From NCBI GenBank assembly GCA_016218485.1, contig JACRDY010000059.1:11529-75528 (forward strand): a stretch of DNA of 64,000 nt, read 5' to 3'. Numbering within the stretch: position 1 is the first letter of the stretch; the number at the start of each line of letters is the position of its first letter. This document shows positions 39,566 to 63,895 of the stretch, piece by piece. The notes under the pieces are model-generated. The model saw nothing but the letters and a program-made list of their open reading frames with translations. It made no database searches and had not been told where the DNA came from. The translations under genes were made by a program, and so were the position numbers. The stretch comes from Candidatus Falkowbacteria bacterium (lineage in GTDB: Bacteria; Patescibacteriota; Patescibacteriia; JACRDY01).

Positions 39566-39574
39566 AGAATTCAT

Positions 39575-39610: not shown

Positions 39611-39639
39611 AGTTTAGAAATATTTTAACTTTGGTATGG

Positions 39640-39830
39640 TAGGGTGTGTAATAGCCCGTTCCCCTCCTTTCCAAGGAGGGGCCAGGGGCGGTTGCCGGAG
39701 CCTTCGGTCTCTACCCAAGCTTTGTTCGCAGGCCACGGTAGCAGCCAATACCTCGGCAACCTCACCCGTCCTCCCCTTAGAAAGGGGAGGAACGGTCTAT
39801 TCCCGGTTGCCGGAGTTTAAATCCAATATA
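39640..39830. repeat. GC-rich mosaic repeat (cccctcctttccaaggagggg; ggttgccggagccttcggtc; cctccccttagaaaggggagg)
   Basis: Shares modules with 12790-12900. Confidence 0.7.
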
Positions 39831-39834
39831 TATG

Positions 39835-40710: not shown

Positions 40711-41748
40711 ATGAATAATTCTCCATTGTTTCCGCGTTTGTGGGAAAAATTTAAACAGCTGTTCGTGATTGTGGCTGTGGTGCTGGTGGTCGGCTCAATC
40801 GTGGTGTATTTTGGCGCCACTAGTCTGACGCGACTACGGTATGGCGGGATCAGCGCTAATGACGCGCCAAGTTACGGCGGCGCGTTCGGAGATTATGGCG
40901 TGGCGACCGGCCTGAGCGCGAGTGATTCTCGTGGCGTGTTTCAGACCAAAGTCGCGTATGAGGCGGATGACTCGGGCAACGGACTGGTGGCAGCGGCGCA
41001 GGCTCAGGAGGGTGAGCTGACTCAGAAGAAAATTATCCGCAATGGCGCGCTCGGTCTGTTCGTGGACAGTCCGGAGGAGTCAGCGCAGGCGATTGAGCGG
41101 GTGGCTCTGAGCGTGGACGGTTTTGTCCAGGATTCGAATATTAGCGAGCAGACGAATGGCAGCAAGTACGGGGAAGTGGTCATCCGGGTGCCGGCTGTTG
41201 AGTTTGATTCCGTTATGGAGCAAATCAAGGGCCTGGCTCGTGAAGTGGAATTTGAGCGCGAGAACGCGCAGGATGTGACGGAGCAGTTTGTCGACCTGGA
41301 CGCGCAGCTGCGCAATTATCGGGCGGAAGAGGGGCGCTATCTTAAATTCATGAATCAGGCGAAGAATATTGATGAGACGCTCAAAGTCGCCGAGCGGCTG
41401 AGCGTGGTCCGCGGGCAGATTGAGCGGATCGAGGGTCAGCTCAAGTTTCTGTCCCGGCAGGTTGATATGTCAGTCATCAGTGTCAGCCTGACATCGTATG
41501 ACGACGTTAAGGTCTTTGGCGTGCGCTGGCGGCCGTTGTATGAGCTCAAAAAAGCGGCGCGCGGTCTGTTTGAGGCGGGTCGGACGTATATCAACTTTGT
41601 TATCAAGTTGGTTGTCTATCTGCCGATCATTGTGCTCTGGGCGCTGACTATCCTTCTGGTTACCTGGGTCGTTTGGAAATTGTTGAAGTGGCTGCACCGG
41701 CGATTTTTGCAAGGGAAAAAATTGGATGATAGTTGGCCGCGGCAGTAA
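40711..41748 (+). CDS. DUF4349-like membrane-anchored protein (N-terminal TM, coiled-coil middle, C-terminal TM)
   Basis: 345 aa with that architecture. Confidence 0.6.
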   Translation: MNNSPLFPRLWEKFKQLFVIVAVVLVVGSIVVYFGATSLTRLRYGGISANDAPSYGGAFGDYGVATGLSASDSRGVFQTKVAYEADDSGNGLVAAAQAQEGELTQKKIIRNGALGLFVDSPEESAQAIERVALSVDGFVQDSNISEQTNGSKYGEVVIRVPAVEFDSVMEQIKGLAREVEFERENAQDVTEQFVDLDAQLRNYRAEEGRYLKFMNQAKNIDETLKVAERLSVVRGQIERIEGQLKFLSRQVDMSVISVSLTSYDDVKVFGVRWRPLYELKKAARGLFEAGRTYINFVIKLVVYLPIIVLWALTILLVTWVVWKLLKWLHRRFLQGKKLDDSWPRQ

Positions 41749-41794
41749 AAAAGAGTATAGTAAAGGGGTGCTATTTAGTGCCCCTTTTGGTAGT

Positions 41795-43411
41795 ATGTCA
41801 TTTTTTATTAAAAAAATTGGTCTTCATCAGCGGTATACTATTATTTTTGTTTTGTTAGGGATCGCTTCTTTTTTGGTTTTTAGTGTCCTGTCTGCCCGAC
41901 TGGCTTTCGTATCGGATGAATATGAGTTTATTTACGCTGCAGCGCAGGTACGCGATTGGGGTACACTTGTTCAGGTGCTAACCTCGAAAATTGGTGGCGA
42001 TTTTTATCGTCCAGTTTTGTATTTTTCTTTTATTATTGATTTTTGGGTTTATGGTTTGCAACCATTTGGTTATTATCTAACCAATAGTTTGTTAGCGGCG
42101 GTTAATGTGGTTTTAGTAGCGTTGATAGTTTTTACCGCTTTAGTTAATTACTTTTATAGTGATCCACGGGATCATGCTCGCAGTTTATTTCTTGCCCTTG
42201 TCTCTGGCGTGGTCTTTATGATTTTTCCGAATCATCATGAAGCCGTCACGTGGTTGGCCGCCAGAACGGATCTCTTAGCCGCTACGTGGTACTTTTTATC
42301 AGTTCTATTGTGGTTAAAATATTTAGCGGCCGAGAGGCGGGGTGGTCGGTATTTGACTGCAGGTTGTATTTTTGCCTTTCTAGCTTTTTTTACCAAAGAG
42401 ATGAGCGTTACCTTGGTACTCGCGCTGCCCATTATTTTTTTAGGGCATTTATTGTATATGCATCAGCGCCAGCAAAATTATAATTTTAAAAAATTGGTTG
42501 GTTTCTTGCCGCTTTTGGCGATATTTATTTTTTATTTGGTCTTCCGGCGGTATATCGTGGGGTATTGGTTCGGCGGGTATATGCTGAGTGGCAGTTCCGA
42601 GTTTCTTAAAATAGACATTCCGGCGGTTATCCGTTTGGTGTTGTCACCGGTGTCGATAGTTTTTTATTCACTGAATCATAGTTATTTTTTTCAGATAGTA
42701 TTGCCGCGTTGGGGCGGACCGTTTCGGGGGTTACCGTTTACCGATTATTTACAATATTTTAAATTTTTGTTTTATGGCGGTGGGGCAGTGTTCATATCGT
42801 TAACGGCGTTTTTTGCCTATTATCAGCAGCGAGTGCGTACCTGGTTACTGGGTGTCATGGTCGGCATACTCTGGGTTTATGTGACGATTCTGCCGATAGT
42901 TGGTTTACTAAAAACCGTTGGGTTGAATTTGGAATCAACGAGGTTTTTTTATTTACCCTCACTAGGAATTTGTTTTCTGTTGACGTTTAGTGTACTGTTT
43001 TGGCCAAAAATTATCCGTGGTATTATGGTGGTTGTCATGGTGTCTTTATTGTCAATTGTCTATTGGATAAATTATCAGCCGTGGTTGACTGCTTCCGTTT
43101 CCGCCAATTCAATTCAGCAAACCGTTACGCAATACGGTAGTGAGATCGTTTTCGACGATTGGGTGTATCTCGTGAATGTTCCCGATAATATCCATGGTGC
43201 CTATGTTTTTCGTCGGGGGTTGACTCAGATGTTCCAGCTCTTTCAGCCTCAGATTGATCGGCAGAAAATAATTATAACCGGCCGAGGCGTGGCAGGCATG
43301 GCCGCGCCAGACTGTTTATCATTGCTCAGCGATCAGTATTGGTTGATGAATACCGATCCTGAGAGCGGTATTGTTGATGGTTTGAGCAGAGCGGGAGCGG
43401 GGGGGGGGTAG
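41795..43411 (+). CDS. GT-C family glycosyltransferase (PMT/ArnT-like), interrupted at a G10 tract
   Basis: Many TM helices; GYYLTNSLLAAVNVVLVALIVF matches the GT39/83 N-terminal loop region; start inferred at MSFFIKK; stop immediately follows G10 at 43399-43408. Confidence 0.65.
   Translation: MSFFIKKIGLHQRYTIIFVLLGIASFLVFSVLSARLAFVSDEYEFIYAAAQVRDWGTLVQVLTSKIGGDFYRPVLYFSFIIDFWVYGLQPFGYYLTNSLLAAVNVVLVALIVFTALVNYFYSDPRDHARSLFLALVSGVVFMIFPNHHEAVTWLAARTDLLAATWYFLSVLLWLKYLAAERRGGRYLTAGCIFAFLAFFTKEMSVTLVLALPIIFLGHLLYMHQRQQNYNFKKLVGFLPLLAIFIFYLVFRRYIVGYWFGGYMLSGSSEFLKIDIPAVIRLVLSPVSIVFYSLNHSYFFQIVLPRWGGPFRGLPFTDYLQYFKFLFYGGGAVFISLTAFFAYYQQRVRTWLLGVMVGILWVYVTILPIVGLLKTVGLNLESTRFFYLPSLGICFLLTFSVLFWPKIIRGIMVVVMVSLLSIVYWINYQPWLTASVSANSIQQTVTQYGSEIVFDDWVYLVNVPDNIHGAYVFRRGLTQMFQLFQPQIDRQKIIITGRGVAGMAAPDCLSLLSDQYWLMNTDPESGIVDGLSRAGAGGG
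43399..43408. repeat. Homopolymeric G10 tract
   Basis: Read directly; removing one G fuses the 41726-43411 and 43419-43817 frames. Confidence 0.9.
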
Positions 43412-45397: not shown

Positions 45398-45525
45398 AAA
45401 TTCAAAGTTCAAAATCCAAATGACAAATCAAGTTCAAAGCCTAAATGTCAAATCAACGCACCTTTTTGAACTTTGTCATTTGGCATTGATTTGAACTTTG
45501 GATTTTGAACTTTGAACTTATCGGG
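45398..45525. repeat. AT-rich gttcaaagt palindromic repeat
   Basis: Near-identical to 14325-14450. Confidence 0.75.
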
Positions 45526-45596: not shown

Positions 45597-46430
45597 ATGA
45601 TAGACGCTCCTCAGACGGGAACCGACATTCCGGTGTCCAGTCAGCGACCAATTTCATCTTATGCAACGAGCCGTTTTCCGTGGCTGACGATGATTATTTC
45701 TATTCTGGCCACCGTCATTGTGGTTGGCGGCGGCGGGTACTACTGGTGGCAGCAGAGTGTTGGCACGACGCAAGTGACATTGCAGCAACAGGCCGATGCG
45801 GCAGCAGCCAGCGTCACCGCCTGCGCCAATGATTTGACCGGTTGCCGTGATCAGCTGACCAAGAGCCAGGATGAGCAGCAGCAGATCAATGCCGAGCTGG
45901 CGATGATTGCTCAACTGCCCTACCAGGGCTGGAAAACGTACACCGATACCCAGTTCGGCTGGCAGTGGCTGTACCCGCCGGATTGGCAGGTCAGCGAGCA
46001 GGTGATAAACGCGGCCAAGAACGTCAGCGGCAAGAACGGTTTTTGCCTAAAGTTTGATTCGTCAGACAGTACGACGTTATCCGTTTGTTACCGTTTGCAG
46101 TCAGACACGACCGCCACCACTTGGTTCCGTACCGGCATCGGCTACACCGAACTGGCCAAAGTGCCGGTCAGCTTTTCTATCCTCGGTCAGCAGATGAACG
46201 AGAAGACGCTGTTCGGTCAAGATGGCGAGGTGAAAGATATTATTTACTTTCAAAACATGAAAGATGACGAGACCGGCTATCCGGCACGAGCTAAGGTGGG
46301 GGATTACTACATTACCGCTATGGCCTCCGACGCCGGTTTCCGTGGCACCGGCTTGAGCGTTATTGACCAGAAACTTTTGGATTTGATTCTCGCTTCCGCC
46401 AAATTGCCGACTGCTGTTGAGCAGCCGTAG
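45597..46430 (+). CDS. hypothetical membrane-anchored / secreted protein
   Basis: 277 aa; TM MIISILATVIVVGGGGYYWW; no family recognised. Confidence 0.5.
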   Translation: MIDAPQTGTDIPVSSQRPISSYATSRFPWLTMIISILATVIVVGGGGYYWWQQSVGTTQVTLQQQADAAAASVTACANDLTGCRDQLTKSQDEQQQINAELAMIAQLPYQGWKTYTDTQFGWQWLYPPDWQVSEQVINAAKNVSGKNGFCLKFDSSDSTTLSVCYRLQSDTTATTWFRTGIGYTELAKVPVSFSILGQQMNEKTLFGQDGEVKDIIYFQNMKDDETGYPARAKVGDYYITAMASDAGFRGTGLSVIDQKLLDLILASAKLPTAVEQP

Positions 46431-48849: not shown

Positions 48850-48950
48850 ATTCCTGGAGTGACACAGCCTCTGGCTGTGTTATGTTATTCAGTAGAGCTT
48901 TCAGCATAACACAGCCAGAGGCTGTGTCACTCCTACTGTGTCACTCCTAC
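48850..48950. repeat. Palindromic repeat gagtgacacagcctctggctgtgttatg ... cataacacagccagaggctgtgtcactc
   Basis: Variants at 56566-56650 and 60112-60190, between paralogs of the Cys-rich array. Confidence 0.8.
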
Positions 48951-50019: not shown

Positions 50020-50125
50020 AATCAGTAATCAGTAATCAGTAATCAGTAATCAGTAATCAGTAATCAGTAATCAGTAATCAGTAATCAGTAACTAGTTACT
50101 AGTTACTGATTACCAGTTACTTTAT
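50020..50125. repeat. Tandem heptamer array (agtaatc)x10 followed by inverted (agttact)x3
   Basis: Read directly. Confidence 0.9.
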
Positions 50126-51176: not shown

Positions 51177-51237
51177 ATCCAGCACCTTCCAGCATATCCC
51201 GTCAGCGTGCTGCGGGGTATGCTGGAAGGTGCTGGAT
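51177..51237. repeat. atccagcaccttccagcata... palindromic repeat (short form)
   Basis: Family copy. Confidence 0.8.
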
Positions 51238-51339
51238 AAAAATTAGAAATTGGAGAAAAACCCTTTGAAATAAAAGGTTTTTTATTTGCCAAAATAGGGG
51301 ATTCTGGTATAGTTGATGAGGGAGAAATTCAGTATTTCC

Positions 51340-51440
51340 TGCGTTTTAGTTATTGGAAAGAGATTTAGTATATCGTATGTCGTATATGGTATGTGGGGAA
51401 ATTCCCCCATATACCATATACCACATACTATATTCCCCCC
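51340..51440. repeat. gtatatg-heptamer-based palindrome directly upstream of paralog 1
   Basis: tcgtatgtcgtatatggtatgtgggg / ccccatataccatataccacatac. Confidence 0.6.
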
Positions 51441-51441
51441 T

Positions 51442-53091
51442 ATGCTCAACTGCAAGAATTGTAATCAACCTTTCACCATCTACCCCGAAGACCAGGAAAT
51501 GTACGATAAGTTTGCCGTACCCGCGCCGCGGCGTTGTCCGCGTTGCCGGCTGATTCAGCGGCTGATGTTCCGGAACGCTCGGGCCCTGTATTACCGGAAG
51601 TGCGACCGCAGCGGCGAGACCATTTTGTCCAGCTATAATCCGAGTCAGCCGTTCCCGGTGTACAAGCCGGATATTTGGTGGAGTGACCAATGGGAAGCCA
51701 TGGATTACGCCCGGGATTATGATTTTGGCAAACCATTTTTTGCCCAATTCAAAGAGCTGAATGACGTGGTACCGCACTTCAGCCTCTTCGTCAGTAATGG
51801 CACGGTGGTGAATTGCGACTTTACCAACTGTATTGGTTTTTCCAAGAATTGTTATTTGACGTTTGAGACTGACTACGCGGAGGACAGCTATTACTCCAAC
51901 CTCTTGAAACGGAGCAAGGACATGGTGGACTGTTCTATTTGCTATGATGATGAATTTTGCTACCAGTGCGTTGATTGCCAGGCGTCGTACGGCTTGCGCT
52001 ATTGTCAAAATTGCACCGGTTGCCGGGACAGCTATTTCCTGTTTGATTGTAAATCGTGTAATGACTGCATCGGCTGTATCAACCAGCGCTATCAGAAATT
52101 CATGATTTTTAACGAGCAGTACAGTGAAGCAGAATATAACCAGAAAAAAGCCGCGCTGCGGCTGGATACCCGCTCGGGCGTCGCGGCGCTCGCTTCGCAG
52201 TGCCAGCAGTTTTTCGGGAAGCACCCGCACAAAAATTTGCAGTTTGAAAAGAACGTCAATAGTGTCGGTAACTATTTGTATAACTCCAAAAACGCATTCC
52301 AGTGCTTCGACTGCAGCGACCTGGAAGACTGCCGCTACTGCGCTAAGCTGTCAATCGGCGTCAAGTCGTGCATGGATTACAACTCGTGGGGCGACCGGGC
52401 GGAGCTCGTCTACAGCTGTTCGGATGTCGGCGGCGGCGTGTATAACCTGAAATTTTGCTGGGCGATTGATACCAAGACCTCAGACTGTGAATACTGCACG
52501 CAGTGTATTGCCTGCAAGGACTGCTTTGGCTGCAGCGGACTGCAAAAGAAGCAGTACTGCATTTTGAATAAACAGTATTCGGAAAAAGAGTATTTCGCGT
52601 TGAAAGAAAAAATTATTGCCAAAATGACAGCCGATGGAGAGTATGGTGAATTTTTTCCGGCAGAGCTGTGTCCGTTTGCCTATAATGAAACCATCGTGAT
52701 GGATTATTTCCCCCTAACCAAAGATGAAGCGTTGAAAGCCGGCTATCGCTGGTATGACCGGGAAAAGTCCAAGCAGCCTGCTGAAACTGAGGCGCCGGAT
52801 GCGATTGGCGAGGTGGCGGACGCCATCATTGGTAAGGTATTAGCCTGCCGTGATTGCCAGTCAAATTATAAGATTATTAAACAAGAATTAGATTTTTGCC
52901 GTCGGGCGAGCGCGCCGATTCCTAGCCAGTGTCCGGACTGCCGACATTTTGGCCGAATGAACAAGCGGATGCCGCTGAGTTTGATCACGGTCAAATGCGA
53001 TAAATGCGGCAATGACATGACGACCGGATATACTGCCGGGGCGGTGCAGAAGGTGTATTGCGAGGAATGTTATCAGAAGGAAATTTACTAG
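51442..53091 (+). CDS. Cys-rich multi-zinc-ribbon repeat protein, paralog 1 of 6 (unassigned family)
   Basis: N-terminal CxxC...CPRCR ribbon; two internal Cys-rich blocks each ending in YC(I/M)(L/F)N(K/E)QYSE.EY; GEYGEFFP...PFAYNET; C-terminal ribbons ending YCEECYQKEIY. Confidence 0.8.
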   Translation: MLNCKNCNQPFTIYPEDQEMYDKFAVPAPRRCPRCRLIQRLMFRNARALYYRKCDRSGETILSSYNPSQPFPVYKPDIWWSDQWEAMDYARDYDFGKPFFAQFKELNDVVPHFSLFVSNGTVVNCDFTNCIGFSKNCYLTFETDYAEDSYYSNLLKRSKDMVDCSICYDDEFCYQCVDCQASYGLRYCQNCTGCRDSYFLFDCKSCNDCIGCINQRYQKFMIFNEQYSEAEYNQKKAALRLDTRSGVAALASQCQQFFGKHPHKNLQFEKNVNSVGNYLYNSKNAFQCFDCSDLEDCRYCAKLSIGVKSCMDYNSWGDRAELVYSCSDVGGGVYNLKFCWAIDTKTSDCEYCTQCIACKDCFGCSGLQKKQYCILNKQYSEKEYFALKEKIIAKMTADGEYGEFFPAELCPFAYNETIVMDYFPLTKDEALKAGYRWYDREKSKQPAETEAPDAIGEVADAIIGKVLACRDCQSNYKIIKQELDFCRRASAPIPSQCPDCRHFGRMNKRMPLSLITVKCDKCGNDMTTGYTAGAVQKVYCEECYQKEIY

Positions 53092-53154
53092 CGCACAGCA
53101 CAGAGCTTATAGCACAAAGCTATGCGCTCTGAGCTCTGTGCTTTGAGCTACTTT
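53092..53154. repeat. Inter-paralog palindromic spacer (gcacagcacaaagc...gctctgagctctgtgctttgagc); same at 54841-54903 and 58418-58477
   Basis: Three near-identical copies read directly. Confidence 0.8.
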
Positions 53155-54840
53155 ATGCCAACCTGTAAACAATGCAATCAACCTTTCATCCTTGGCCAGA
53201 TCGGCACAGATATTTTGCGGCGGCTGGATGTACCTGAACCGTCAGTGTGTGATGTTTGCGCCGTGCGCCAGCTGATGGCCTTTCGGAACGAGCGGACTTT
53301 TTATTCCAGCCAGTGTCAGAAGTGTTCGAAAACCATTCTATCGATGTATCCGCCAGACACCGCGCTGAGCGTCTACTGTCGCGACTGCTGGTGGGGAGAT
53401 ACTTGGGACGGCACGCAGTTTGGCCGAGTGTATCGTGGGCCGGAAACATTTTTCCAAGAGCTAGCTGAACTGCAGAAAGTCGTGCCTCGGGAAGGATTGG
53501 TTAACCTGAACAGTCCGGATTGCGATTACTGCAACCACGTCCGTGATTGCAAGTCCTGCTATATGTGTTCGCTCTTGTCTGATCAGTGTGAAGAATGTTA
53601 CTACTGCTACTGGATTGTCACGGTGAAGGATTCAGCGGCCTGTTACTATGGGCGCAATAACCAGCGCTGTTACTTCTGTGTCGCCACGATCCAGAGCTAT
53701 GGCTGCTCGTATGTATTGGAATGTGAAAATTGTTTAGACTGCCACTATAGCTTTGATCTGCGAGGCTGTAAGAATTGCATGTTCAGCAGCAACTTACGCA
53801 ATCAGCAGTATGTTTTTGAGAATCAACAGTTGACCAAGACTGAATACGAAACGCGGGCCGCGGCAGTCAATCGGGGGAGCTGGCAGCAGTCACGAGACTC
53901 TGTGCAACGCTGGCATCAGCTGATTGACCAGGCGGTGAAGGCGTACTCATACCAGAGTAAATGTGAAAATTCTACCGGGGATAATATCCAGAGCAGCGTG
54001 AACACCCAGCTCGCCTATAATAGTTTTGAAGATGAAAACGCCTATAACGCCGCGAGCGTGATTTGTGCTAAGAATATTTTTAACGGTTTTGCCGTGGGCA
54101 GCCAGCCGACCGAATGGGCGAGTAATATCGCCGTCGTGAAGGGCGGCACGCAGATCGTCAGCTGTTTCAACACCGCGTACTCCAGCGATATTTATTTTTG
54201 TGAGAATCTAATTTCCTGCATGGACTGCATCGGCTGTATTGGCCTGCACAAAAAGAAGTACTGCATTCTGAATACACAGTATGAGGAAGAGGAGTATAAA
54301 AAAATCAAAGCCGAGCTACTCGGGTATTTGCGTCAGAGCGGCGCGCTGTCGGAATTTTTCCCAAAGTCATTTTCGCCATTTGCCTACAATGAAACCGCGG
54401 CGCAGGATTTTTATCCTTTGACGAAAGAACAAGCCGTTCAGCTGGACTATACTTGGAAGGATGAATTACCCGGGACTTTTGGCCATGAGACGCTGCCAGC
54501 CGATGGCGTGCCCGATCGGATTGCCGAGGTGAATGATGACATCTTACGGCAGACTCTAGCCTGTATTCACTGCGGCCGGAATTTCAAATTAATTAAACAA
54601 GAGCTGACACTTTATCGGTCGCTCGGCGTGCCGATCCCGCGCGAATGTTTTAATTGTACGTTGCGTCAGCGGCTGGACTTGATGGGGGAGCGTGATTTAC
54701 GGGAGCGGCAGTGTGATTGTACGCGAGCAGAACATCAGCAGCATCAGGGTAAAACATGCCAAAATAAGTTTTTGACGAAATATACCGCGAAAGATAAGAA
54801 GGTGTACTGCGAGGAGTGTTATCAGAAGGAAATTTACTAA
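53155..54840 (+). CDS. Cys-rich multi-zinc-ribbon repeat protein, paralog 2
   Basis: Same architecture; true start MPTCKQCNQPF (the ORF-track start lies in the inter-paralog palindrome). Confidence 0.8.
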   Translation: MPTCKQCNQPFILGQIGTDILRRLDVPEPSVCDVCAVRQLMAFRNERTFYSSQCQKCSKTILSMYPPDTALSVYCRDCWWGDTWDGTQFGRVYRGPETFFQELAELQKVVPREGLVNLNSPDCDYCNHVRDCKSCYMCSLLSDQCEECYYCYWIVTVKDSAACYYGRNNQRCYFCVATIQSYGCSYVLECENCLDCHYSFDLRGCKNCMFSSNLRNQQYVFENQQLTKTEYETRAAAVNRGSWQQSRDSVQRWHQLIDQAVKAYSYQSKCENSTGDNIQSSVNTQLAYNSFEDENAYNAASVICAKNIFNGFAVGSQPTEWASNIAVVKGGTQIVSCFNTAYSSDIYFCENLISCMDCIGCIGLHKKKYCILNTQYEEEEYKKIKAELLGYLRQSGALSEFFPKSFSPFAYNETAAQDFYPLTKEQAVQLDYTWKDELPGTFGHETLPADGVPDRIAEVNDDILRQTLACIHCGRNFKLIKQELTLYRSLGVPIPRECFNCTLRQRLDLMGERDLRERQCDCTRAEHQQHQGKTCQNKFLTKYTAKDKKVYCEECYQKEIY

Positions 54841-54903
54841 CACACAGCACAAAGCGCAGAGCACAAAGCTATGCGCTCTGAGCTCTGTGCTTTGAGCTAC
54901 TGT

Positions 54904-56565
54904 ATGCCAACCTGTAAAAACTGCACCACCGACTTCACCATCACCGACGCAGACAAAACGTTCTACGCCAAGATTGACGTACCCGAGCCGACGCGCTGCC
55001 CGCAGTGCCGGAAACAGCGGCGTTTGAGCTTCCGCAATGAGTCAAATTTTTATTTAACCAAATGTCAGCGGTGTCATAAAGAAACGGTTTCGGTGTATTC
55101 ACCGAATAAACCTTTGGTGGTGTATTGTAAAGACTGCTGGTGGGGTGAGGACTGGAATCCGTTGGATTACGGCCAAGAGTTTGATTGGCAGAAAAGTTTT
55201 ACCGAGCAGTTTAGAGATCTGATGGCGGTGGTGCCGCGGCCGGCGCTCTTGCATTCCGAGAGCGTGAACTGCGATTATAGCATGTTTTCGGCCAATAATA
55301 AGGACTGCTACATGCTGGTACAGTCCAGTAACTGCGAAGAATGCCACTACTGCTACTGGGTGCAGAAATGCCGTAATTGTTTGGATTCGGCGTTTTGTTT
55401 GGACTGCGAGCTGTGCTATCAAGTTGTCGGCGGGGAAAAGTGTTATAACTGTTTTTATTGTAACAATTGTTCCGGTTGCTTGGACAGTCGGTTTCTGCTT
55501 AATTGTCGTGGCTGCAAAAATTGCTTTGGCTGCGTTAATCTCAATAACGCGCAATATTGCATTTTTAATGAACAGAAAACGAAAACCGAGTATGAAACAT
55601 TTATTCAATCAGTAGATTTTATTTCATACCGACACTACCGAGAGTACCAGGAAAAGTTTTATCAGTTTTCTTTACAGCACCCGCGTCGTTTCGCTGAAAT
55701 TTATCAGGCGGATAATTCTACGGGTAATTATCTCAAACGGGTTAAAAACGTCACCATGATTTTTGACGGTTATGATATTGAAGACTGTAGCTACGGTCAG
55801 CACGTCTTGCGTGAGGTGAAAGATGTGATGGATGTCAGTAATGCCGCTCGTAAAGCAGAATTAGTCTATGAAAGTGTTCAGGCGGTATTGAACGTGTATC
55901 AGATTCGTTTTAGTTTATTCCCGCGTCAAGGCGCTTCATTTTTGGATTACTGCGATCATTGCGTCGGGGCTAAGAATTGTTTCGGCTGCATCGCGGTGCG
56001 GAATCAAAAGTATTGCATTTTGAATAAACAGTATAGTGAAAAAGAATATACCGTTGTGGTGCCGAAAATTATTAATCACCTCAAACAAACAGGGAAGTGG
56101 GGAGAATTTTTTGATCCGAGTCTGTCGGCGTTTGGCTATAACGAAACGAACGCCATGGAATTTTTCCCGTTGACGAAAAAAGCGGCAATGACTCAAGGGT
56201 TTAACTGGGAGGATAACACCGGCGGTACTTTCGGCCAGGAAACAATCAAGTGGGCAAACATGCCGGATCGTTTCAGCGACTATGCGGGCGACTTGAGCCG
56301 AGAAGTGTTGACGTGCTCTGACTGCCGGCGGAATTATAAGTTGGTGGCCGTAGAACTGGATTTTTATAAAAAATATAGCTTACCCATTCCGCGGCAGTGC
56401 CCGAAGTGTCGCCACCGCGAGCGCATCACCAGCCGGAATCCGGAACAGCTGTATCACCGTGCCTGTATGAACGCAGGGTGTAAGAATGAATTTGAAACCA
56501 CGTATTCACCCGCCCGACCGGAAAAAGTTTATTGTGAAGCGTGTTACCAGAAAGAGATTTATTAG
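54904..56565 (+). CDS. Cys-rich multi-zinc-ribbon repeat protein, paralog 3
   Basis: Same architecture; 5' ~100 nt near-identical to paralogs 5 and 6. Confidence 0.8.
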   Translation: MPTCKNCTTDFTITDADKTFYAKIDVPEPTRCPQCRKQRRLSFRNESNFYLTKCQRCHKETVSVYSPNKPLVVYCKDCWWGEDWNPLDYGQEFDWQKSFTEQFRDLMAVVPRPALLHSESVNCDYSMFSANNKDCYMLVQSSNCEECHYCYWVQKCRNCLDSAFCLDCELCYQVVGGEKCYNCFYCNNCSGCLDSRFLLNCRGCKNCFGCVNLNNAQYCIFNEQKTKTEYETFIQSVDFISYRHYREYQEKFYQFSLQHPRRFAEIYQADNSTGNYLKRVKNVTMIFDGYDIEDCSYGQHVLREVKDVMDVSNAARKAELVYESVQAVLNVYQIRFSLFPRQGASFLDYCDHCVGAKNCFGCIAVRNQKYCILNKQYSEKEYTVVVPKIINHLKQTGKWGEFFDPSLSAFGYNETNAMEFFPLTKKAAMTQGFNWEDNTGGTFGQETIKWANMPDRFSDYAGDLSREVLTCSDCRRNYKLVAVELDFYKKYSLPIPRQCPKCRHRERITSRNPEQLYHRACMNAGCKNEFETTYSPARPEKVYCEACYQKEIY

Positions 56566-56650
56566 GAACGACACGCCCTCTGGGCGTGTTATGTTTGTTA
56601 CGCGCTCTGTAACCATAACACAGCCAGAGGCTGTGTCGTTCCCTTGGAGG
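56566..56650. repeat. Inter-paralog gacacgccctctgggcgtgttatg...cataacacagccagaggctgtgtc palindrome
   Basis: Same family as 48850-48950 and 60112-60190. Confidence 0.8.
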
Positions 56651-56695
56651 AACAATTTTTGACAAAATTTAAAATCCTGGCTATACTAAAGCATT

Positions 56696-58417
56696 ATGCC
56701 ATACTGCCGAAATTGCTCCCAAGCGTTTGACATTACGTTAAAAGAAAAAGATTTTTACGCTAAGATGGGCACCAAACAGCCGAGCCATTGTTTTGATTGC
56801 CGGATGCAGCGCAAGTACGCGTTCAGAAATGAGCGCAAAATTTATAACCGCCAGTGCAGCTTGTGTCAGCAACAGATTATCAGCTCTTACCCGGCGGACG
56901 CGCCTTTTCCGGTGTATTGTTTTGATTGTTGGTGGTCGGATCGGTGGGACGGTTTGAGCTACGGCCGGGATTTTGATTGGTCCCGTCCATTTTTTTCGCA
57001 ACTCTCTGAGCTGTCGCTCAAGGTCCCGCACCAAGCCCTGCCCAATCCGAATAATAACCAGAACAGCCCGTATGTTACGTGGGCCGATTGGAACAAAAAT
57101 TGTTATTTAGTCTTTTCTTCTTCAATGTGTGAAGATTGTTTGTACTCTGAAGTTTTGGTTGACGCTCGAGACTGTGTTGACTGCACGAATGTTAAAGAAT
57201 CGGAGAACTGTTATTTTTCTATCGATTTGCAGAAATGCTATAACGTCAAATTTAGCCGCAATGTAAAAGATTGCCTGGATTGTAATTTTTGTTTTGATTG
57301 CGCTGACTGCAAAAATTGTTTTTTGTCTTATAATCTGCGTCACGGAGAATACTATATCCGTAATGTTCAGTACTCGCCGGACGCGTATGTCCAGGCAGTC
57401 GAGCGGATTATGGCCAGCCGCAGCGAGCTCGTGCGGGCGTGGGATGAATTTATTAACATGATGCGCTCTGACGCCATCCACCAGTTCGCTCGTCAGGTGA
57501 AGTGTGAAGACGTGGAGGGTGATGAGCTGTATGCCTGCAAGCGCAGTTTCAATAGTTTTGATTCGCGCGAGATTCAGGATTGCTGCAATATTATTTACGG
57601 CGACAAGATTAACGACTGCGCTGATAGCTTCGCCATCGTTGACCACGCTGAAAAATGTTTGGAGGTCTTTAGTGTCAATGGCGGCTATCAAAATATGTAC
57701 GGCTATGGTTATTGGGGAAAATCCCAAAATAGCCGGTACAGCAATACCTGCGTTTCGTCCGTTGATTGTTTCGGCTGCATTGGTCTAAAACACCAGAAAT
57801 ATTGTATTCTGAACAAGCAGTATTTGGCGGCCGAATATCAAATCATGGTCAAAAAAGTTTTGGAACATATGCGGAAGTCTAATTATCCGACGTACGCTGG
57901 CCAGACGAGCGAGTGGGGTGAATTTTTCCCGGTGCAGCTTTCACCCTTTGCTTATAATGAAACAATGGCTCATGTTTATTATCCGCTTAAAAAAGAAGAA
58001 GTTTTAGCGCGCGGCTGGGGCTGGAGGGACGAAAATGATATACTCACTGGTAAAGAAACTATTCATGGGGAGGCATTGCCGGATGCTGCGGCATCAGTTC
58101 CCAAGGGCATGACTGACCAGGTGATCGGCTGCGCTGACTGTGGCCGGAATTACAAGCTGATCAAGCAGGAAATAGATTTCTACACCAAACATACTCTGCC
58201 GCTGCCCAAGATGTGTCCGGAGTGCCGCTTTCAGCAGCGGTTGGCCCTGCGTAATCCGCGTAAGCTGTGGCCGCGGCAGTGCACCTGTCTCCTGGGTCAC
58301 GCCAGCCATCAGGGTCAATCAGTCTGTCCGATTCATTTCAAGACCACCTACCGGCCGGCCGAAGGGGGAGAGGCGAAAGTGTATTGTGAGGAATGTTATC
58401 AGAAGGAAATTTACTAG
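56696..58417 (+). CDS. Cys-rich multi-zinc-ribbon repeat protein, paralog 4
   Basis: Same architecture (MPYCRNCSQAF... ...VYCEECYQKEIY). Confidence 0.8.
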   Translation: MPYCRNCSQAFDITLKEKDFYAKMGTKQPSHCFDCRMQRKYAFRNERKIYNRQCSLCQQQIISSYPADAPFPVYCFDCWWSDRWDGLSYGRDFDWSRPFFSQLSELSLKVPHQALPNPNNNQNSPYVTWADWNKNCYLVFSSSMCEDCLYSEVLVDARDCVDCTNVKESENCYFSIDLQKCYNVKFSRNVKDCLDCNFCFDCADCKNCFLSYNLRHGEYYIRNVQYSPDAYVQAVERIMASRSELVRAWDEFINMMRSDAIHQFARQVKCEDVEGDELYACKRSFNSFDSREIQDCCNIIYGDKINDCADSFAIVDHAEKCLEVFSVNGGYQNMYGYGYWGKSQNSRYSNTCVSSVDCFGCIGLKHQKYCILNKQYLAAEYQIMVKKVLEHMRKSNYPTYAGQTSEWGEFFPVQLSPFAYNETMAHVYYPLKKEEVLARGWGWRDENDILTGKETIHGEALPDAAASVPKGMTDQVIGCADCGRNYKLIKQEIDFYTKHTLPLPKMCPECRFQQRLALRNPRKLWPRQCTCLLGHASHQGQSVCPIHFKTTYRPAEGGEAKVYCEECYQKEIY

Positions 58418-58477
58418 TGCACAGCACAAAGCGCACAGCACAAAGCTATGCGCTCTGAGCTCTGTGCTTTGAGCTAT

Positions 58478-60109
58478 ATGCCTAAATGTAAACAATGCAC
58501 CACCGATTTCCCCATCACCGACGCAGACAAAACGTTCTACGCCAAGATTGACGTACCTAAACCGACGCGCTGTCCGCAATGCCGCCGCGTTCGCCGATTG
58601 AGCTACCGTAATGAAATCACATTGTATCCCGCCATCTGTGGTTTGTGTAAGAAAAGCATGATCAGCATGTACAACCCGGACGGATCGTATGTGGTGTATT
58701 GTCAGGATTGCTGGTGGGGAGACGGCTGGGACCCGACGGCATCCGGTCAGACGTATGATCCGAGCCGATCATTTTTTGAACAATTTAGTGAGTTGATGAA
58801 AAAAGTGCCGCGGATCAGTTTGATTAATAAAGAAGCGGACAATAGCGAGTACTGTAATTTTTCTTGGCGGAACAAAAATTCCTACCTTTTATTTACCGGC
58901 GGAGAGAACGATGACGTGTTTTATGCTAATCGCTGCTGGAAGTGCCGGAGTAGTATTGATTGCTCCAACCTGTATAATTGTGAATTGTGTTATGAAGCGA
59001 CTGATTCCGCCAATTGTTATAATTGCGCTTGGCTAGAATACTCAACCGGCTGCTCTGACTGTTGGCTGGGGTACAACCTTAGCGGCTGCTCGGACTGTTT
59101 CGGCTGCGTTAACCTGTCTAATCAGAAATTTCATATTTTTAATACCCCGGTACCTGAAGCCGAGTACCGTCAGCGGATCGCGGAGTTGAAGAAGGACCTG
59201 CCGGCGGCGGCGCAGCTATTTCGGGCACAAAAAATGAAAGGGGTGCGCAAGTACGCCAATATTATAAAATCAGTGAATTGCAGCGGTGATTCAATCGTTG
59301 GCAGCAAGAATTGCCAGTCGTGTTTCCGGGTCAAAGACGCGGAAGACTGCAAGTACGTTTGCGATACGACATTGATCAAAGACAGCTATGACGTTGATAA
59401 CGATGATCATTCAGAATTGCTCTATGAGTGCATTGGTAACGAGTCCAACCATAATCAGCAATTCATTGACATCTGCTGGTTTGATCGGGATATTCAGTAC
59501 TGTAGCCTCTGCATGAGCTCAAAGAATCTGTTTGGCTGTGTGGGAATGAAAAACGCGGAGTACTGTATTTTGAATAAAAAATATTCAGCGGAAGAATATG
59601 AGACGCTACGCCAGCAGATTATTGTCAAAATGAAACAAGATGGGGAATATGGTGAGTTTTTTCCCAGTAAATTTTCGCCCTTTGGTTATAATGAGACGAA
59701 CGCCTCCCTGTATTACGAGCTCAAAAAAGAGCAGGCTGTTGCCGCCGGCTTTACCTGGCAGGACAATTTGCCGTCAACGACTGGTAAAGAAACGCTCAAG
59801 GAATTACCGGCGGACATTAGCCAGGTAAACGAGGGGATTACCAAAGAGATTTTGGCCTGCCAGTCGTGCGGTAAGAATTATAAATTTATTCCCCAGGAAG
59901 TGAAACTGTATAAAATGCTCGGCGTACCGCTCCCGCCACAGTGTTTCCGCTGTCGTCATGTTGGCCGGATCCACCGACGGAATGGCCAGACACTCTATAG
60001 CCGCACCTGCATGAAAGACGGCTGCAAGAATTCATTTGAGACGCCATACGCGCCGGATCGGAAAGAAGTGGTTTACTGTGAGGAGTGCTATCAGAAGGAA
60101 ATTTACTAA
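58478..60109 (+). CDS. Cys-rich multi-zinc-ribbon repeat protein, paralog 5
   Basis: Same architecture. Confidence 0.8.
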   Translation: MPKCKQCTTDFPITDADKTFYAKIDVPKPTRCPQCRRVRRLSYRNEITLYPAICGLCKKSMISMYNPDGSYVVYCQDCWWGDGWDPTASGQTYDPSRSFFEQFSELMKKVPRISLINKEADNSEYCNFSWRNKNSYLLFTGGENDDVFYANRCWKCRSSIDCSNLYNCELCYEATDSANCYNCAWLEYSTGCSDCWLGYNLSGCSDCFGCVNLSNQKFHIFNTPVPEAEYRQRIAELKKDLPAAAQLFRAQKMKGVRKYANIIKSVNCSGDSIVGSKNCQSCFRVKDAEDCKYVCDTTLIKDSYDVDNDDHSELLYECIGNESNHNQQFIDICWFDRDIQYCSLCMSSKNLFGCVGMKNAEYCILNKKYSAEEYETLRQQIIVKMKQDGEYGEFFPSKFSPFGYNETNASLYYELKKEQAVAAGFTWQDNLPSTTGKETLKELPADISQVNEGITKEILACQSCGKNYKFIPQEVKLYKMLGVPLPPQCFRCRHVGRIHRRNGQTLYSRTCMKDGCKNSFETPYAPDRKEVVYCEECYQKEIY

Positions 60110-60111
60110 CA

Positions 60112-60190
60112 AGGGAACGACACGCCCTCTGGGCGTGTTATGTCGGTTACACGCTCTGTAACGATAACACAGCCAGAGGCTGTGTCGCTC
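60112..60190. repeat. Inter-paralog palindrome (same family as 56566-56650)
   Basis: Near-identical. Confidence 0.8.
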
Positions 60191-60200
60191 CGAACAGCAT

Positions 60201-61841
60201 ATGCCAACCTGTAAACAATGCACCACCGACTTTCCCATCACCGACGCAGACAAAACGTTCTACGCTAAGATTAGCGTACCCGAGCCGACGCGCTGTCCGG
60301 ACTGCCGGCAGCAGCGACGGTTGTCGTGGGTCAATGAAATGAATCTATATCCCCGTCAGTGCGACCTATCAGGTAAAAATATTATTTCGTCATGTCGGCC
60401 GGATAGCGGCTTGATTATTTATGATACTCACCGGTGGTGGGGTGACGGCTGGGAAGGTCTGAATTTTGGGGTTGAGTATAATGAGGGTCAAAAATTTTTT
60501 GATCAATTTTTTGCATTACATAAGACCGTACCCCATCCAGCGCTCAACGTTACCTATGGCACGTTGATTGACAGCGAGTACGTGAATTACTGTGGTCATA
60601 CCAAAAGTAGCTACCTGATATTTGACAGTGACTACGATGAGGATTGCTATTACTGCTATTCAGTTAATAATTCTAAAGACCTGGTTGATTGTTTAAAAAT
60701 GCAGCGTTCTGAATTGTGCTATAGCTGTATTGACTGCGATGAATGTTTTAACTTGTTTTACTCTCAAGATTGTTTGCGCTGTTCCGAGAGTTATTGGTTA
60801 AAAAACTGTTACAACTGCGTCAATTGTTTTGGCTGCGTGAATGCGCGGAATCAGAAGTATTGTTGGTTCAACGAACAATTAACGCCGGAAGAATATCAAC
60901 GTCGTTTAGCCGGAGCTACCATCAGCAGCCGTCAGGCGGTTAGACAGTGGCAGACGAAGTATGCGGATTTTAGATTGCAGTATCCCTGTATTTACCAGCA
61001 CGGGATCAAAAATGACGGCTGTACCGGCGATTACCTGAAAAACACCAATCAAGTCGCTGATTCGTATGATTGCTGGGAGGCGCAGAATTGCCGCTACTGT
61101 TACGCGATTTATTTTTCCTCAAAAGATATGTATGACGTTTTCCAGTGGGGGAATTGTCAGCTGATGTATGAAGGCGTGGTGGTGGGGGAGAATGATTATA
61201 ACTGCAAATTTTGTTTCCAATGCTATAACAGCTGTCAAAACCTAGAATACTGTTTTGAGAGTCATGGCTGCAAAAACTGCTTTGGCTGTGTTGGCTTAAA
61301 GAAAAAAGAATTTTGCATTCTTAATAAACAGTATACCGAACCGGAGTACTTACGATTACGGGAACAGATTATTCAGAAAATGAAAGCCGATGGTGAATAT
61401 GGCGAGTTTTTCCCGGCGGCATATTCTCCGTTTGGTTATAATGAAACGACGGCCCGGTTTTACTATCCGTTGTCGCGCGAGCAGGCGCTGGAACGTGGCT
61501 GGCGCTGGTTTGATCAAGAGGAAAAGAACGTTGATCATAAAGCACCGCCGGATGATTTGGGAATGGTGACCGAGGATATATTGAGAGAAACGTACGTCTG
61601 CGCCTGTGGCAAGTCGTTCAAAATTATTCCCCAGGAATGGAAATTTTATCAGAATTTAAAAATCCCTCTGCCCGATCAATGTTACATCTGCCGTCATCAG
61701 GATAGACTACGGCAGCGCAACCCGCAGCATCTCTGGCCGCGTCAGTGTGCCAAATGTCAGAAAGACATGCAGACGACATATGCTCCGGACCGGCCGGAAA
61801 TAGTCTACTGTCGTGAATGTTTCCGCGAGGCAGTGTATTAG
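60201..61841 (+). CDS. Cys-rich multi-zinc-ribbon repeat protein, paralog 6
   Basis: Same architecture; C-terminus diverged to YCRECFREAVY. Confidence 0.8.
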   Translation: MPTCKQCTTDFPITDADKTFYAKISVPEPTRCPDCRQQRRLSWVNEMNLYPRQCDLSGKNIISSCRPDSGLIIYDTHRWWGDGWEGLNFGVEYNEGQKFFDQFFALHKTVPHPALNVTYGTLIDSEYVNYCGHTKSSYLIFDSDYDEDCYYCYSVNNSKDLVDCLKMQRSELCYSCIDCDECFNLFYSQDCLRCSESYWLKNCYNCVNCFGCVNARNQKYCWFNEQLTPEEYQRRLAGATISSRQAVRQWQTKYADFRLQYPCIYQHGIKNDGCTGDYLKNTNQVADSYDCWEAQNCRYCYAIYFSSKDMYDVFQWGNCQLMYEGVVVGENDYNCKFCFQCYNSCQNLEYCFESHGCKNCFGCVGLKKKEFCILNKQYTEPEYLRLREQIIQKMKADGEYGEFFPAAYSPFGYNETTARFYYPLSREQALERGWRWFDQEEKNVDHKAPPDDLGMVTEDILRETYVCACGKSFKIIPQEWKFYQNLKIPLPDQCYICRHQDRLRQRNPQHLWPRQCAKCQKDMQTTYAPDRPEIVYCRECFREAVY

Positions 61842-61844
61842 ACA

Positions 61845-61900
61845 CAGATTACACAGATAATCACAACTGGCACAGATCCGTGTGATCTGTGTAATCTGTG
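61845..61900. repeat. cacagat heptamer-based palindrome
   Basis: gacacagattacacagataatcaca...gtgatctgtgtaatctgtgtc. Confidence 0.7.
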
Positions 61901-61904
61901 TCTA

Positions 61905-62543: not shown

Positions 62544-63803
62544 ATGAAAATAAAACAAATCCGCGCTCGTGAGATTCTTGATTCTCGCGGCGACCCGACC
62601 GTTGAGGTCGAGGTAGTGTTGAGGAACGGCATTCGGGTGAAAGCTTCAGTACCCTCCGGCGCTTCCACGGGCGCGCATGAGGCTTGGGAGTTCCGTGACG
62701 GCGACAAGAAACGGTACGGTGGTAAGGGTGTGTTGAAAGCGGTACGAAACGTCAATGACAAAATCGCGCCGATGCTTCTGGGCCAGCGTGCCAATAAGCA
62801 GTCGTACCTGGATGAACTGATGATTAAGTTGGACGGCACCAAGAACAAGCAGAATCTCGGCGCTAATGCCATTCTCGGTGTGTCACTGGCAGTTGCCCGC
62901 GCCGCCGCGGCGAGTAAAGGCTGGCCTTTGTATAAATACCTCCGGACGTTGTCGTCGCTGGAACTGATGCGCTACCAGCTGCCCATGCCGATGTTTAATA
63001 TTTTTAACGGCGGTAAGCACGCCGACACCAATCTTGATTTCCAGGAATTCATGATCATCCCGAAAGGGCTGAACGGCAGCTTCGCGGAAAAAGTTCGGGC
63101 GGGCGCGGAAGTCTTTCATGCGCTTGGTAAAGTGCTCTTGGCCAACGGCAAAGATACCGATGTGGGGAATGAGGGCGGGTACGCGCCGGATATTCACCTG
63201 ACGACTGACGCCATCAAGTATATTCTGACGGCGATTACCAAAGCCGGATACAATAAGGGTAAACAGCAGATTTTTCTCGGCACTGACGTGGGCGCGTCCG
63301 AGCTCTACCGCAAGAGCCAAAAAGAGTATCATTTTCAGCTCGGGGTTCATCGCCTCAACCGTCAGCAGATGATTGACGAGTTTGCCGAATGGCTGACTAA
63401 GTATCCATTCTGTTCCATTGAAGACCCGCTGGATCAGGATGATTGGCTCGGCTGGCAGCAAATCACCAAACAGCTGGGCAGAAAGGTGATGCTGGTGGGC
63501 GATGATCTGTTTGTTACCAATGTCGATCGTTTAACCATAGGTATTAGTAAAAATGCGGGCAATGCCGTTTTGGTCAAGCTCAATCAAGTCGGCAGCCTGT
63601 CTGAAACCCTGCGCTGTATTGAGCTGGCTAAGGCGCATCGCTACAATGTGGTGATTTCGCACCGCTCTGGTGAAACATCCGATGATTTTATCGCTGATCT
63701 GGCCGTGGCGGTCAATGCCGAGTATATCAAGTCAGGGTCGCTGTCCCGCGGCGAGCGTCTGGCCAAGTATAATCGGCTGATGGAAATTGAGAGAGAAATT
63801 TAA
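62544..63803 (+). CDS. eno: enolase
   Basis: MKIKQIRAREILDSRGDPTVEVEV... the ORF-track start at 62433 is an upstream extension through the repeat. Confidence 0.95.
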   Translation: MKIKQIRAREILDSRGDPTVEVEVVLRNGIRVKASVPSGASTGAHEAWEFRDGDKKRYGGKGVLKAVRNVNDKIAPMLLGQRANKQSYLDELMIKLDGTKNKQNLGANAILGVSLAVARAAAASKGWPLYKYLRTLSSLELMRYQLPMPMFNIFNGGKHADTNLDFQEFMIIPKGLNGSFAEKVRAGAEVFHALGKVLLANGKDTDVGNEGGYAPDIHLTTDAIKYILTAITKAGYNKGKQQIFLGTDVGASELYRKSQKEYHFQLGVHRLNRQQMIDEFAEWLTKYPFCSIEDPLDQDDWLGWQQITKQLGRKVMLVGDDLFVTNVDRLTIGISKNAGNAVLVKLNQVGSLSETLRCIELAKAHRYNVVISHRSGETSDDFIADLAVAVNAEYIKSGSLSRGERLAKYNRLMEIEREI

Positions 63804-63895
63804 GATTGCAGATTTCAGATTGCAGATTGGTATAGTAGTAACGTTACGTACCAACCCAATCTGCAATCTGAAATCTGCAATCTGAAATCTACTAT
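63785..63895. repeat. gattgca / gatttca heptamer-based palindrome between eno and gpmI
   Basis: Read directly. Confidence 0.75.

Follow-up and report, generated by a model that had tools for sequence, protein, structure and literature searches.

Why would a member of the candidate phyla radiation (CPR, Patescibacteria), a group that accounts for a large share of bacterial diversity with genomes of about 1 Mb and whose lineage-specific genes are mostly unexplained, keep six consecutive copies of one cysteine-rich gene? The question is raised by a 64,000-nucleotide stretch of a Candidatus Falkowbacteria bacterium (contig JACRDY010000059.1, positions 11,529 to 75,528; referred to here as the window), in which six plus-strand open reading frames (ORFs) follow one another between window positions 51313 and 61841. 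The family to which they belong occupies about 1% or more of a CPR genome (10.5 kb in this case) and is found throughout the radiation, yet database labels say only 'hypothetical' or 'zinc-ribbon'. Based on sequence, structural prediction and genomic context, we tentatively propose, with a probability of roughly 40%, that the paralogs are specificity variants that serve as adaptors or cargo of a VirD4/TrwB-like coupling-protein ATPase, the most likely candidate for a shared partner.

The six ORFs can be aligned end to end, with pairwise identities of 33-45% and 72 invariant columns; paralog 2 is the most divergent copy (33-36% identity to the other five) and the sequence of paralog 5 is the same as that of a database entry (P0001) from a Candidatus Falkowbacteria bacterium, annotated as 'zinc-ribbon domain containing protein'. 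In all 15 paralog pairs the proportion of nonsynonymous differences (pN 0.38-0.46) is well under that of synonymous differences, which is saturated (pS 0.74-0.83), and dN/dS is 0.20 for the two pairs with computable dS. The copies are therefore under purifying selection, as the initial annotation of this locus had argued, and are not repeat artefacts, the alternative that it had named beforehand. Six same-strand genes of 546-592 amino acids with one architecture had been described; genes and architecture stand, but the sizes had to be corrected to 543-573 amino acids after revision of four starts (Table 1). For paralogs 2, 3 and 5, the ORFs beginning at 53122, 54871 and 58448 are over-long, because their 'MRSELCALSY' N-termini are the translation of a conserved 60-63-nucleotide intergenic hairpin; the true starts are the homologous MP.CK ATG codons at 53155, 54904 and 58478. 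In the case of paralog 1, the TTG codon at 51313 sits within the -10 hexamer of a promoter-like site, and the start is therefore placed at the ATG at 51442.

The sequence motifs listed in the initial annotation are all present in the alignment: the CxxC...CPxCR finger, VYCxDCWWGDxW, GEYGEFFP...SPF[AG]YNET, the two Cys-rich blocks with their YCILNKQYS.EEY ends and the C-terminal fingers with their VYCEECYQKEIY ends. They fall into a constant order, namely an N-terminal pair of treble-clef zinc fingers (a zf_Tbcl finger, ZnF1, then a CxxC-x17-CxxC finger bearing a WW motif, ZnF2), block 1, a helical hairpin, block 2, a helix with the GEFFP/YNET module, and a C-terminal finger pair (ZnF3 and ZnF4). 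Profile comparison with hhalign, based on 242 members, shows that the N-terminal and C-terminal finger pairs are homologous through internal duplication (99.8% probability, E 3.5e-30, 77 columns) and that the same holds for the two blocks, each taken with its tail (99.9% probability, E 1.4e-36, 109 columns). A narrow beta-solenoid fold is predicted for each block; Cys, Ser, Asn and Tyr abound in both. The AlphaFold model of paralog 5, based on a 63-sequence alignment, is compact (predicted local distance difference test score, pLDDT, 85.4; predicted template-modelling score 0.87); pLDDT exceeds 90 in the fingers and across residues 350-540, and lies at 62-77 in block 1 and at 73-98 in block 2. 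Conservation, taken as mean information content, peaks in ZnF4, the helix after block 2, ZnF1/2 and GEFFP/YNET, and is lowest in the hairpin, the linker and both blocks; the chain ends 5-6 residues beyond the last CxxC. No signal peptide or transmembrane segment was found in the 242 members (maximum 19-residue hydropathy 1.55), which supports the earlier view of these proteins as soluble and cytoplasmic-looking. None of the 281 harvested members carries a fusion or an extra domain. In some arrays a member is broken into two ORFs, of about 370 and about 160-180 amino acids, at the same position just ahead of the GEFFP module (L079:6551-8322, L001:11575-13332, L005:5786-7530, L020:5691-7405); these could be frameshifts or pseudogenes, or else a recurrent split form.

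The proteins had also been said to fall in no recognised family. This is true of the core of about 370 residues, for which no family was found in Pfam, NCBIfam, PADLOC, PDB sequence profiles or a Foldseek search against the PDB (residues ~100-455 have no match at all in Pfam and NCBIfam), but not of the terminal fingers. PF13451 (zf_Tbcl) matches the N-terminal finger above its gathering cutoff of 24 in four of the six copies (32.7, 25.2, 26.3 and 27.5 bits in paralogs 3-6); no match is reported for paralogs 1 and 2, though all four cysteines are present. The second N-terminal finger and the C-terminus match PF23477 (zf_Tbcl_2) below cutoff (best 22.4 bits, cutoff 27, E ~1e-4), and TIGR04272 (CxxC-x17-CxxC) also stays below its cutoff of 36 (best 19.5 bits, E ~1e-4). 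The exact CxxC-x17-CxxC spacing is seen in ZnF2 and in ZnF4 of paralogs 1 and 6 (for instance CGLC-x17-CQDC in ZnF2 of paralog 5 and CDKC-x17-CEEC in ZnF4 of paralog 1), while some ZnF4 copies have C-x4-C or longer inserts. A CxxC-x17-CxxC domain has been found experimentally to bind zinc in small proteins of M. mazei (PMC12704099). Among PDB sequence profiles, only marginal LIM/CRP matches to the C-terminal finger region were obtained (E 0.002-0.02), and the single PADLOC match, to a Cas12f finger, is at chance level. The highly conserved GEFFP...YNET module has no detected relatives. The blocks match neither of the Pfam repeat families PF00132 and PF00805 at E<=1; in five of the six paralogs they show weak similarity (E 1.5e-7 to 5e-4, around residues 118-230 and 281-389) to the PHROGs family phrog_15341, whose function is not known and which may contain a similar Cys-ladder solenoid. 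A phage or viral origin was rejected, since tblastn against 50,697 phage records returned no match and IMG/VR a single fragment. The literature searched does not describe the family, and the sole mention in the Meheust CPR protein-family preprint is of an unrelated CAP-domain family. Thus the fingers belong to known Pfam families of uncharacterised function, and the blocks are predicted to adopt a fold of a known class. For the complete protein, its occurrence in arrays and the genomic link described below, the libraries and literature searched offer no described counterpart; we do not claim to have demonstrated a new mechanism.

The family is large. A word-indexed search yielded at least 3,971 clusters at 90% identity, and a profile search of 1.84 billion 50%-identity representatives returned 6,379 matches at E<=1e-3, of which 2,501 reach E<=1e-30; the best 150, at 541-601 amino acids, are all matched over their entire length. 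A pattern scan of GTDB contigs, with one genome per species, gave at least 600 matches, and the best 78 loci were examined. Among these listed matches, every informatively named record is Patescibacteria/CPR, five being named only 'bacterium'; the lineages are Peregrini-/Peribacteria, Gracilibacteria, Abawacabacteria, Nomura-, Pacei-, Harrison-, Lipton-, Jorgensen-, Staskawicz- and Sungiibacteria, Minisyncoccia and metagenome-assembled genomes labelled Saccharibacteria. Two or more copies lie within about 10 kb at 60 of the 78 loci, in arrays of 2-10 copies that are nearly always on one strand; elsewhere up to 10 copies occur within about 20 kb. The window array is thus a typical case of a family-wide tandem habit, and the remark on six diverged copies in one lineage understated a CPR-wide family of thousands of members in which arrays are usual. 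For 199 of the 220 proteins from multi-copy loci the nearest relative is in the locus of another genome. Within-locus identity has a median of 41% (range 27-64%), and no paralog of the window is closer to its siblings than to its nearest relatives outside (e.g. for paralog 1, 51% outside versus 41% among siblings). Recent local expansion and concerted evolution were rejected on account of these nearest relatives elsewhere. Judged from the sequences, the paralogs had separated before the compared genomes diverged, a pattern that suggests long-maintained, sub-functionalised isoforms on a fixed chassis.

A functional lead comes from the genomic context. We surveyed 80 loci by all-against-all clustering of neighbours and by a Pfam census of 129 adjacent genes, in which the top family is the VirD4/TrwB-type coupling-protein ATPase (PF10412, PF02534, PF12696, PF01935). 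Its 31 genes are spread over 26 loci, at a median distance of 56 bp from a family gene and on the same strand in 28 of 31 cases; most of these adjacent ATPases are devoid of transmembrane helices. TrmB-like regulators are present at 18 loci, mostly divergent and upstream, PaaX-like regulators at five and MreB at ten, and the gene orders denoted tFFFA, tFFFFA, FFtFFFA, FFpMAFF and AFFFFFFA recur in at least three deep lineages. The ATPase is favoured as partner because it is co-oriented with the family genes, nearly abuts them in about a third of the arrays and often carries the same type of finger at its C-terminus. This finger (...VPF.P..GRPVYCKDC) reaches 55.8 bits with PF23477 in the ATPase of locus L005 and is of the ZnF2/ZnF4 type. 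In many ATPases a CxxC-x17-CxxC finger lies behind the NTPase domain and is followed by a Lys/Glu/Ala-rich low-complexity or coiled-coil tail of 200-350 residues (L005:13055-15514, L008:13995-16598, L014:16777-18882 and others).

Under the scheme that we favour, the paralogs would share one chassis and differ in specificity. Docking to a common partner, most likely the VirD4/TrwB-like ATPase, would be the task of the conserved basic fingers together with the GEFFP/YNET module, whereas the variable solenoid faces would recognise different ligands, so that the family proteins would act as adaptors or as cargo. In some lineages their expression would be under the control of winged helix-turn-helix (wHTH) regulators of the TrmB- or PaaX-like type.

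Several observations weigh against this scheme. There is no ATPase within about 10 kb in 54 of the 80 arrays, that of the window included, and a reciprocal, ATPase-seeded metagenome scan found a family gene at only 10 of 70 informative loci (14%). The commonest ATPase context is instead secD-secF, a sigma70-region-4/HARE-HTH protein, a membrane protein and the ATPase. Other components of a type IV secretion system (T4SS), such as virB4 or virB6, are not enriched among the 129 neighbours. The surveyed loci are phylogenetically non-independent. Finally, a folded zinc finger at the extreme C-terminus combined with a rigid solenoid is atypical of T4SS cargo. The discrepancy between the array-seeded and the ATPase-seeded scans is resolved by the subtype specificity of the linkage. 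Among 117 clustered ATPases, 25 form a subtype that lacks the finger tail, and for 20 of them a family gene is found no more than 1 kb away; the larger subtype has 89 members, of which 64 bear a CxxC-x15-19-CxxC finger at the C-terminus and 16 adjoin an array. An obligate ATPase partner, weakened by the reciprocal scan, has accordingly given way to a subtype-specific association, and the linkage is statistically striking, subtype-specific and non-obligate.

The secD-secF string is itself conserved in CPR: secD-secF are followed by a sigma70-region-4/HARE-HTH gene (about 350 amino acids), the gene of a membrane protein without Pfam match (about 460 amino acids), the ATPase gene, pgk and housekeeping genes (loci L081-L160, e.g. 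L123, L128, L148, L157). In Peregrinibacteria-type genes the membrane protein of about 460 amino acids is fused to the ATPase N-terminus, and the pair resembles a coupling protein divided in two and embedded beside the Sec machinery.

A published survey counted 5,713 VirD4-like type IV coupling proteins (T4CPs) in 2,918 Patescibacteria genomes, only 148 of them near virB4; its authors suggest that the orphan VirD4-like T4CP was perhaps exapted, and array neighbours of T4CPs go unmentioned (PMC12102498). In a bolder version of our proposal, the family would supply the missing clients (cargo or specificity adaptors) of these thousands of orphan ATPases, with the invariant C-terminal CxxC-x17-CxxC finger as docking signal and the finger provided in cis on the ATPase when no array is adjacent. 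The family would then constitute, across the phylum, an ancient set of substrates for a type IV machine that has been repurposed and is central to epibiotic life. We regard this extension as improbable.

The proteins could also be stand-alone nucleic-acid-binding scaffolds, in which the basic, Arg-rich treble-clef finger pairs, one at each end of a rigid double solenoid, would contact DNA or RNA, perhaps to bridge or measure two sites, in a CPR housekeeping function unrelated to the ATPase, with paralogs differing in target. Nucleic-acid binding is possible because the finger modules are basic: the zf_Tbcl-type modules ZnF1 and ZnF3 carry +5.6 and +12.5 charges per 100 residues, and near-invariant Arg clusters (RxQRRLxxRNER) stand behind the zinc knuckle. 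The family is also ancient and uniform across CPR, and its neighbouring regulators are DNA-binding wHTH proteins. Moreover, the window array is set among housekeeping genes, with rpsB, tsf, gap and an AI-2E-family transporter gene upstream and eno downstream, and tRNA synthetases, ribosomal proteins and DnaK/GrpE are found next to other arrays. However, the whole protein is mildly acidic (mean net charge -3.7), as are the blocks, and the linker ahead of ZnF3 is strongly acidic. Such a scaffold would also leave unexplained both the tight, co-oriented ATPase adjacency and the common finger type, and we consider it somewhat unlikely.

If instead the proteins were secreted effectors, they would be T4SS cargo recognised by the ATPase through the C-terminal finger and delivered into host cells, and the arrays would be a repertoire comparable to the Bartonella bep genes located beside virD4. 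They lack a signal peptide and yet adjoin a T4CP-like ATPase, and the C-terminus, with ZnF4 and the short stretch behind it, is the most conserved part of the chain. T4SS are widespread in Patescibacteria and apparently do not serve conjugation (PMC12102498). Nevertheless, effectors are usually lineage-specific and fast-evolving, whereas this family is uniform across the radiation and under strong purifying selection, and the neighbourhood shows no enrichment of virB genes. Zinc-stabilised fingers and a solenoid would presumably have to be unfolded for export. In addition, the t4cp homologue is reported not to be essential for epibiotic growth of S. epibionticum, whereas other T4SS genes are (PMC12102498). 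A role as secreted effectors is distinctly unlikely in our view.

With a Cys content of 7-8%, a strict period of three with CxxCxxC strings, and Cys-rich insect antifreeze solenoids among the nearest structural analogues, the proteins might also be thought of as thiol-rich metal or redox buffers, whose Cys-lined solenoid interiors would accommodate metal ions or Fe-S clusters in rows, or else provide a redox sink, additional copies adding capacity. The 242-member alignment makes this very unlikely. In the fingers, cysteines are conserved or lost as units: those of ZnF1 and ZnF4 are 93-100% conserved (93-98% in ZnF1); C57, C75 and C78 of ZnF2 are gained and lost jointly (phi 1.00), the finger being intact in 54% of members and lost in 46%, including paralogs 1 and 6 of the window; and those of ZnF3, which is lost in about 28%, likewise go together (phi 0.77-0.98; 0.98 for C464/C492). 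In contrast, the block cysteines, placed strictly at every third position across about 100 residues (autocorrelation 0.70 at lag 3), individually reach a conservation of only 20-80%, give way mainly to Ser, Val, Leu, Thr and Gly, and vary in number from 4 to 21 per protein in block 1 and from 3 to 17 in block 2 (merely 6 in block 2 of paralog 3). They show no co-variation with partners (phi <=0.41), with the caveat that register slips in the repeat alignment could blur it. There is no Pfam match to ferredoxin Fer4 or any other metal-cluster family, and the block cysteines are not conserved as ligand sets. Zinc, Fe-S or disulfide sites in the blocks were rejected on the basis of conservation, co-variation and the range of counts. 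Only the fingers thus appear to behave as metal sites, and we infer 3-4 zinc ions per chain. Since the block cysteines have period three, exchange with Ser, Val and Leu, variable counts and no fixed partners, they are most simply read as small, inward-facing ladder or core residues of a narrow solenoid. The earlier 'multi-zinc-ribbon' label therefore suits the four fingers of the terminal pairs and not the blocks, and the repeats of about 15 residues described there rest on an underlying period of 3, with 9, 12 and 15 as secondary periods.

Polymorphic-toxin/immunity-like or anti-phage diversification of a rapidly evolving conflict locus, as raised by the initial annotation, would fit the tandem diverged copies, the variable blocks, the weak phrog_15341 match and the occurrence of HerA/VirD4-type ATPases in some defence systems, but is hardly credible because the paralogs are old (for 199 of 220 the closest relative is in another genome) and without recent duplicates (at most 64% identical within a locus), are uniform in length and architecture, carry no toxin, nuclease or other effector domain and no fusions, have no PADLOC match beyond the chance-level finger, are essentially absent from phage and viral collections and, in the window, stand amid housekeeping genes and not in an island.

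Table 1. Features of the array and its surroundings (window coordinates).
Feature	Position	Strand	Length (aa)	Remarks
Palindrome, perfect 25-bp arms	51177-51237	+		upstream of array; -54 kcal/mol; same family at 28771 and 31128
Promoter-like TTGCCA-16-TATAGT, extended TG	51286-51313	+		upstream of paralog 1; consensus match only
Paralog 1	51442-53091	+	549	ORF; start corrected by alignment and by promoter-like site overlapping TTG; ZnF1, ZnF3 and ZnF4 intact, ZnF2 lost (ligand positions C,S,K,I); 15 + 14 Cys in the two blocks
Type A spacer hairpin	53092-53154	+		-28.8 kcal/mol; further copies 54841-54903 and 58418-58477; source of MRSELCALSY extensions
Paralog 2	53155-54840	+	561	all four fingers intact; 8 Cys in block 2
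Paralog 3	54904-56565	+	553	all four fingers intact; zf_Tbcl 32.7 bits (cutoff 24)
Type B spacer hairpin	56566-56641	+		-44.6 kcal/mol, z -6.7; second copy 60114-60191
Promoter-like TTGACA-17-TATACT	56659-56687	+		near-consensus sigma70-like, 11/12 matches; ends 8 nt before paralog 4 ATG
Paralog 4	56696-58417	+	573	all four fingers intact; best promoter-like site of the region just upstream
Paralog 5	58478-60109	+	543	copy used for structure model
Paralog 5, finger pair ZnF1+ZnF2	58478-58747	+		
Paralog 5, solenoid block 1	58832-59143	+		predicted
Paralog 5, helical hairpin	59156-59239	+		
Paralog 5, solenoid block 2	59243-59572	+		predicted
Paralog 5, helix + GEFFP/YNET module	59573-59842	+		
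Paralog 5, finger pair ZnF3+ZnF4	59843-60106	+		
Paralog 6	60201-61841	+	546	ZnF2 lost (C,S,D,R); C-terminus VYCRECFREAVY
Hairpin	61842-61901	+		directly 3' of last gene; -29 kcal/mol, z -6.4

As for the expression of the array, the putative promoter ahead of paralog 4 suggests two transcription units, comprising genes 1-3 and genes 4-6, and a paralog 4 mRNA leader that would be very short or absent, while the hairpin behind the last gene likely marks the end of a transcription unit. The ATG codons of paralogs 2, 3 and 5, directly behind a spacer hairpin, are preceded by no obvious Shine-Dalgarno-like sequence. A role of the spacer hairpins as array-specific RNA elements was rejected, as the same palindrome families are found elsewhere in the window. 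For instance, a palindrome related to type B lies beyond the array at 48856-48933, and the palindrome upstream of paralog 1 is a genome-wide intergenic element, not an array-specific one, since its family recurs. An Rfam scan of the window returned two tRNAs only, and no family matches the palindromes.

Long, frequently perfect intergenic palindromes of recurring sequence families are a general trait of the window, which contains 45 inverted-repeat pairs with arms of at least 16 nucleotides. Sites are found at 873-946, 6446-6565, 8126-8199, 10418-10490, 10980-11036, 16663-16811, 28771-28831, 31128-31188, 45430-45512, 48856-48933, 50038-50121, 51177-51237, 51370-51433 and 63798-63895. One family (ATCCAGCACCTT.CAG.ATA.CCCG) is represented at 28771, 31128 and 51177, and another (GACACAGCC.CTGGCTGTGT) at 48856, 56566 and 60110. 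Their folding energies range from -24 to -54 kcal/mol and U-tracts are mostly missing; they may be elements of the repetitive extragenic palindromic type or terminator or processing hairpins. The site at 50038-50121, between gap and the AI-2E transporter gene, consists of about seven tandem heptamers (AGTAATC) followed by their inverted complement.

Further upstream, a DndB-like gene (38335-39414; PF14072, DNA-sulfur-modification-associated, E 8e-17) separates uvrA from a DUF4349 gene within the window's stretch of lowest GC content (0.39 versus about 0.50; dip at 38001-40000). It is possibly a small acquired or defence-related insert that breaks a uvrB-uvrA...uvrC cluster. Two ORFs flanking uvrC, at 41726-43411 (561 amino acids) and 45597-46430 (277 amino acids), have no Pfam match at E<=1e-5.

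What had been a vague observation of Cys-rich proteins is now a defined architecture, in which true metal sites are told apart from structural cysteines. The family also has a first testable functional lead in the orphan coupling-protein ATPases, about whose role in Patescibacteria the literature is undecided (PMC12102498). Should the ATPase link hold, the substrates or adaptors of a machine believed to underlie episymbiotic life would come within reach; should the link fail, structural and biochemical studies of the family would remain worthwhile.

Several known systems resemble parts of this one. The finger types are those of PF13451 and PF23477/TIGR04272, but these families describe small stand-alone fingers of unknown function, whereas in the present proteins a finger pair is placed at either end of a core of about 370 residues. 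The resemblance of the C-terminal fingers to LIM/CRP double zinc fingers covers about 35 residues and concerns Cys spacing only. For the predicted blocks, the nearest structural analogues are narrow beta-solenoids: the spruce budworm antifreeze protein (1m8n), the Lolium ice-binding protein (3ult), the Tenebrio antifreeze protein (1ezg) and the curli protein CsgA (8c50). With identities of 4-12%, which amount to no sequence similarity, this is at most a resemblance of modelled fold class, and an ice-binding or amyloid function is not implied; the known ice-binding and CsgA solenoids are secreted and the insect antifreeze proteins disulfide-bonded, whereas the window family has neither signal peptide nor conserved Cys pairs. 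It also differs from the hexapeptide left-handed beta-helix acyltransferases and the pentapeptide repeats, which follow [LIV]-G-x4 or A(D/N)LXX patterns instead of Cys and small residues with period three, and it lacks the active-site region of the acyltransferases. At the level of gene organisation, the closest parallel is Bartonella virD4 with its tandem bep effector genes, which likewise form an array of paralogs without signal peptides beside a T4CP-type ATPase, as seen here at a third of the loci. However, the family is ancient and uniform, unlike typical T4SS effectors, and the ATPase associated with the CPR arrays differs from VirD4 T4CPs in being an orphan far from virB4 (PMC12102498) and usually paired with a separate membrane protein.

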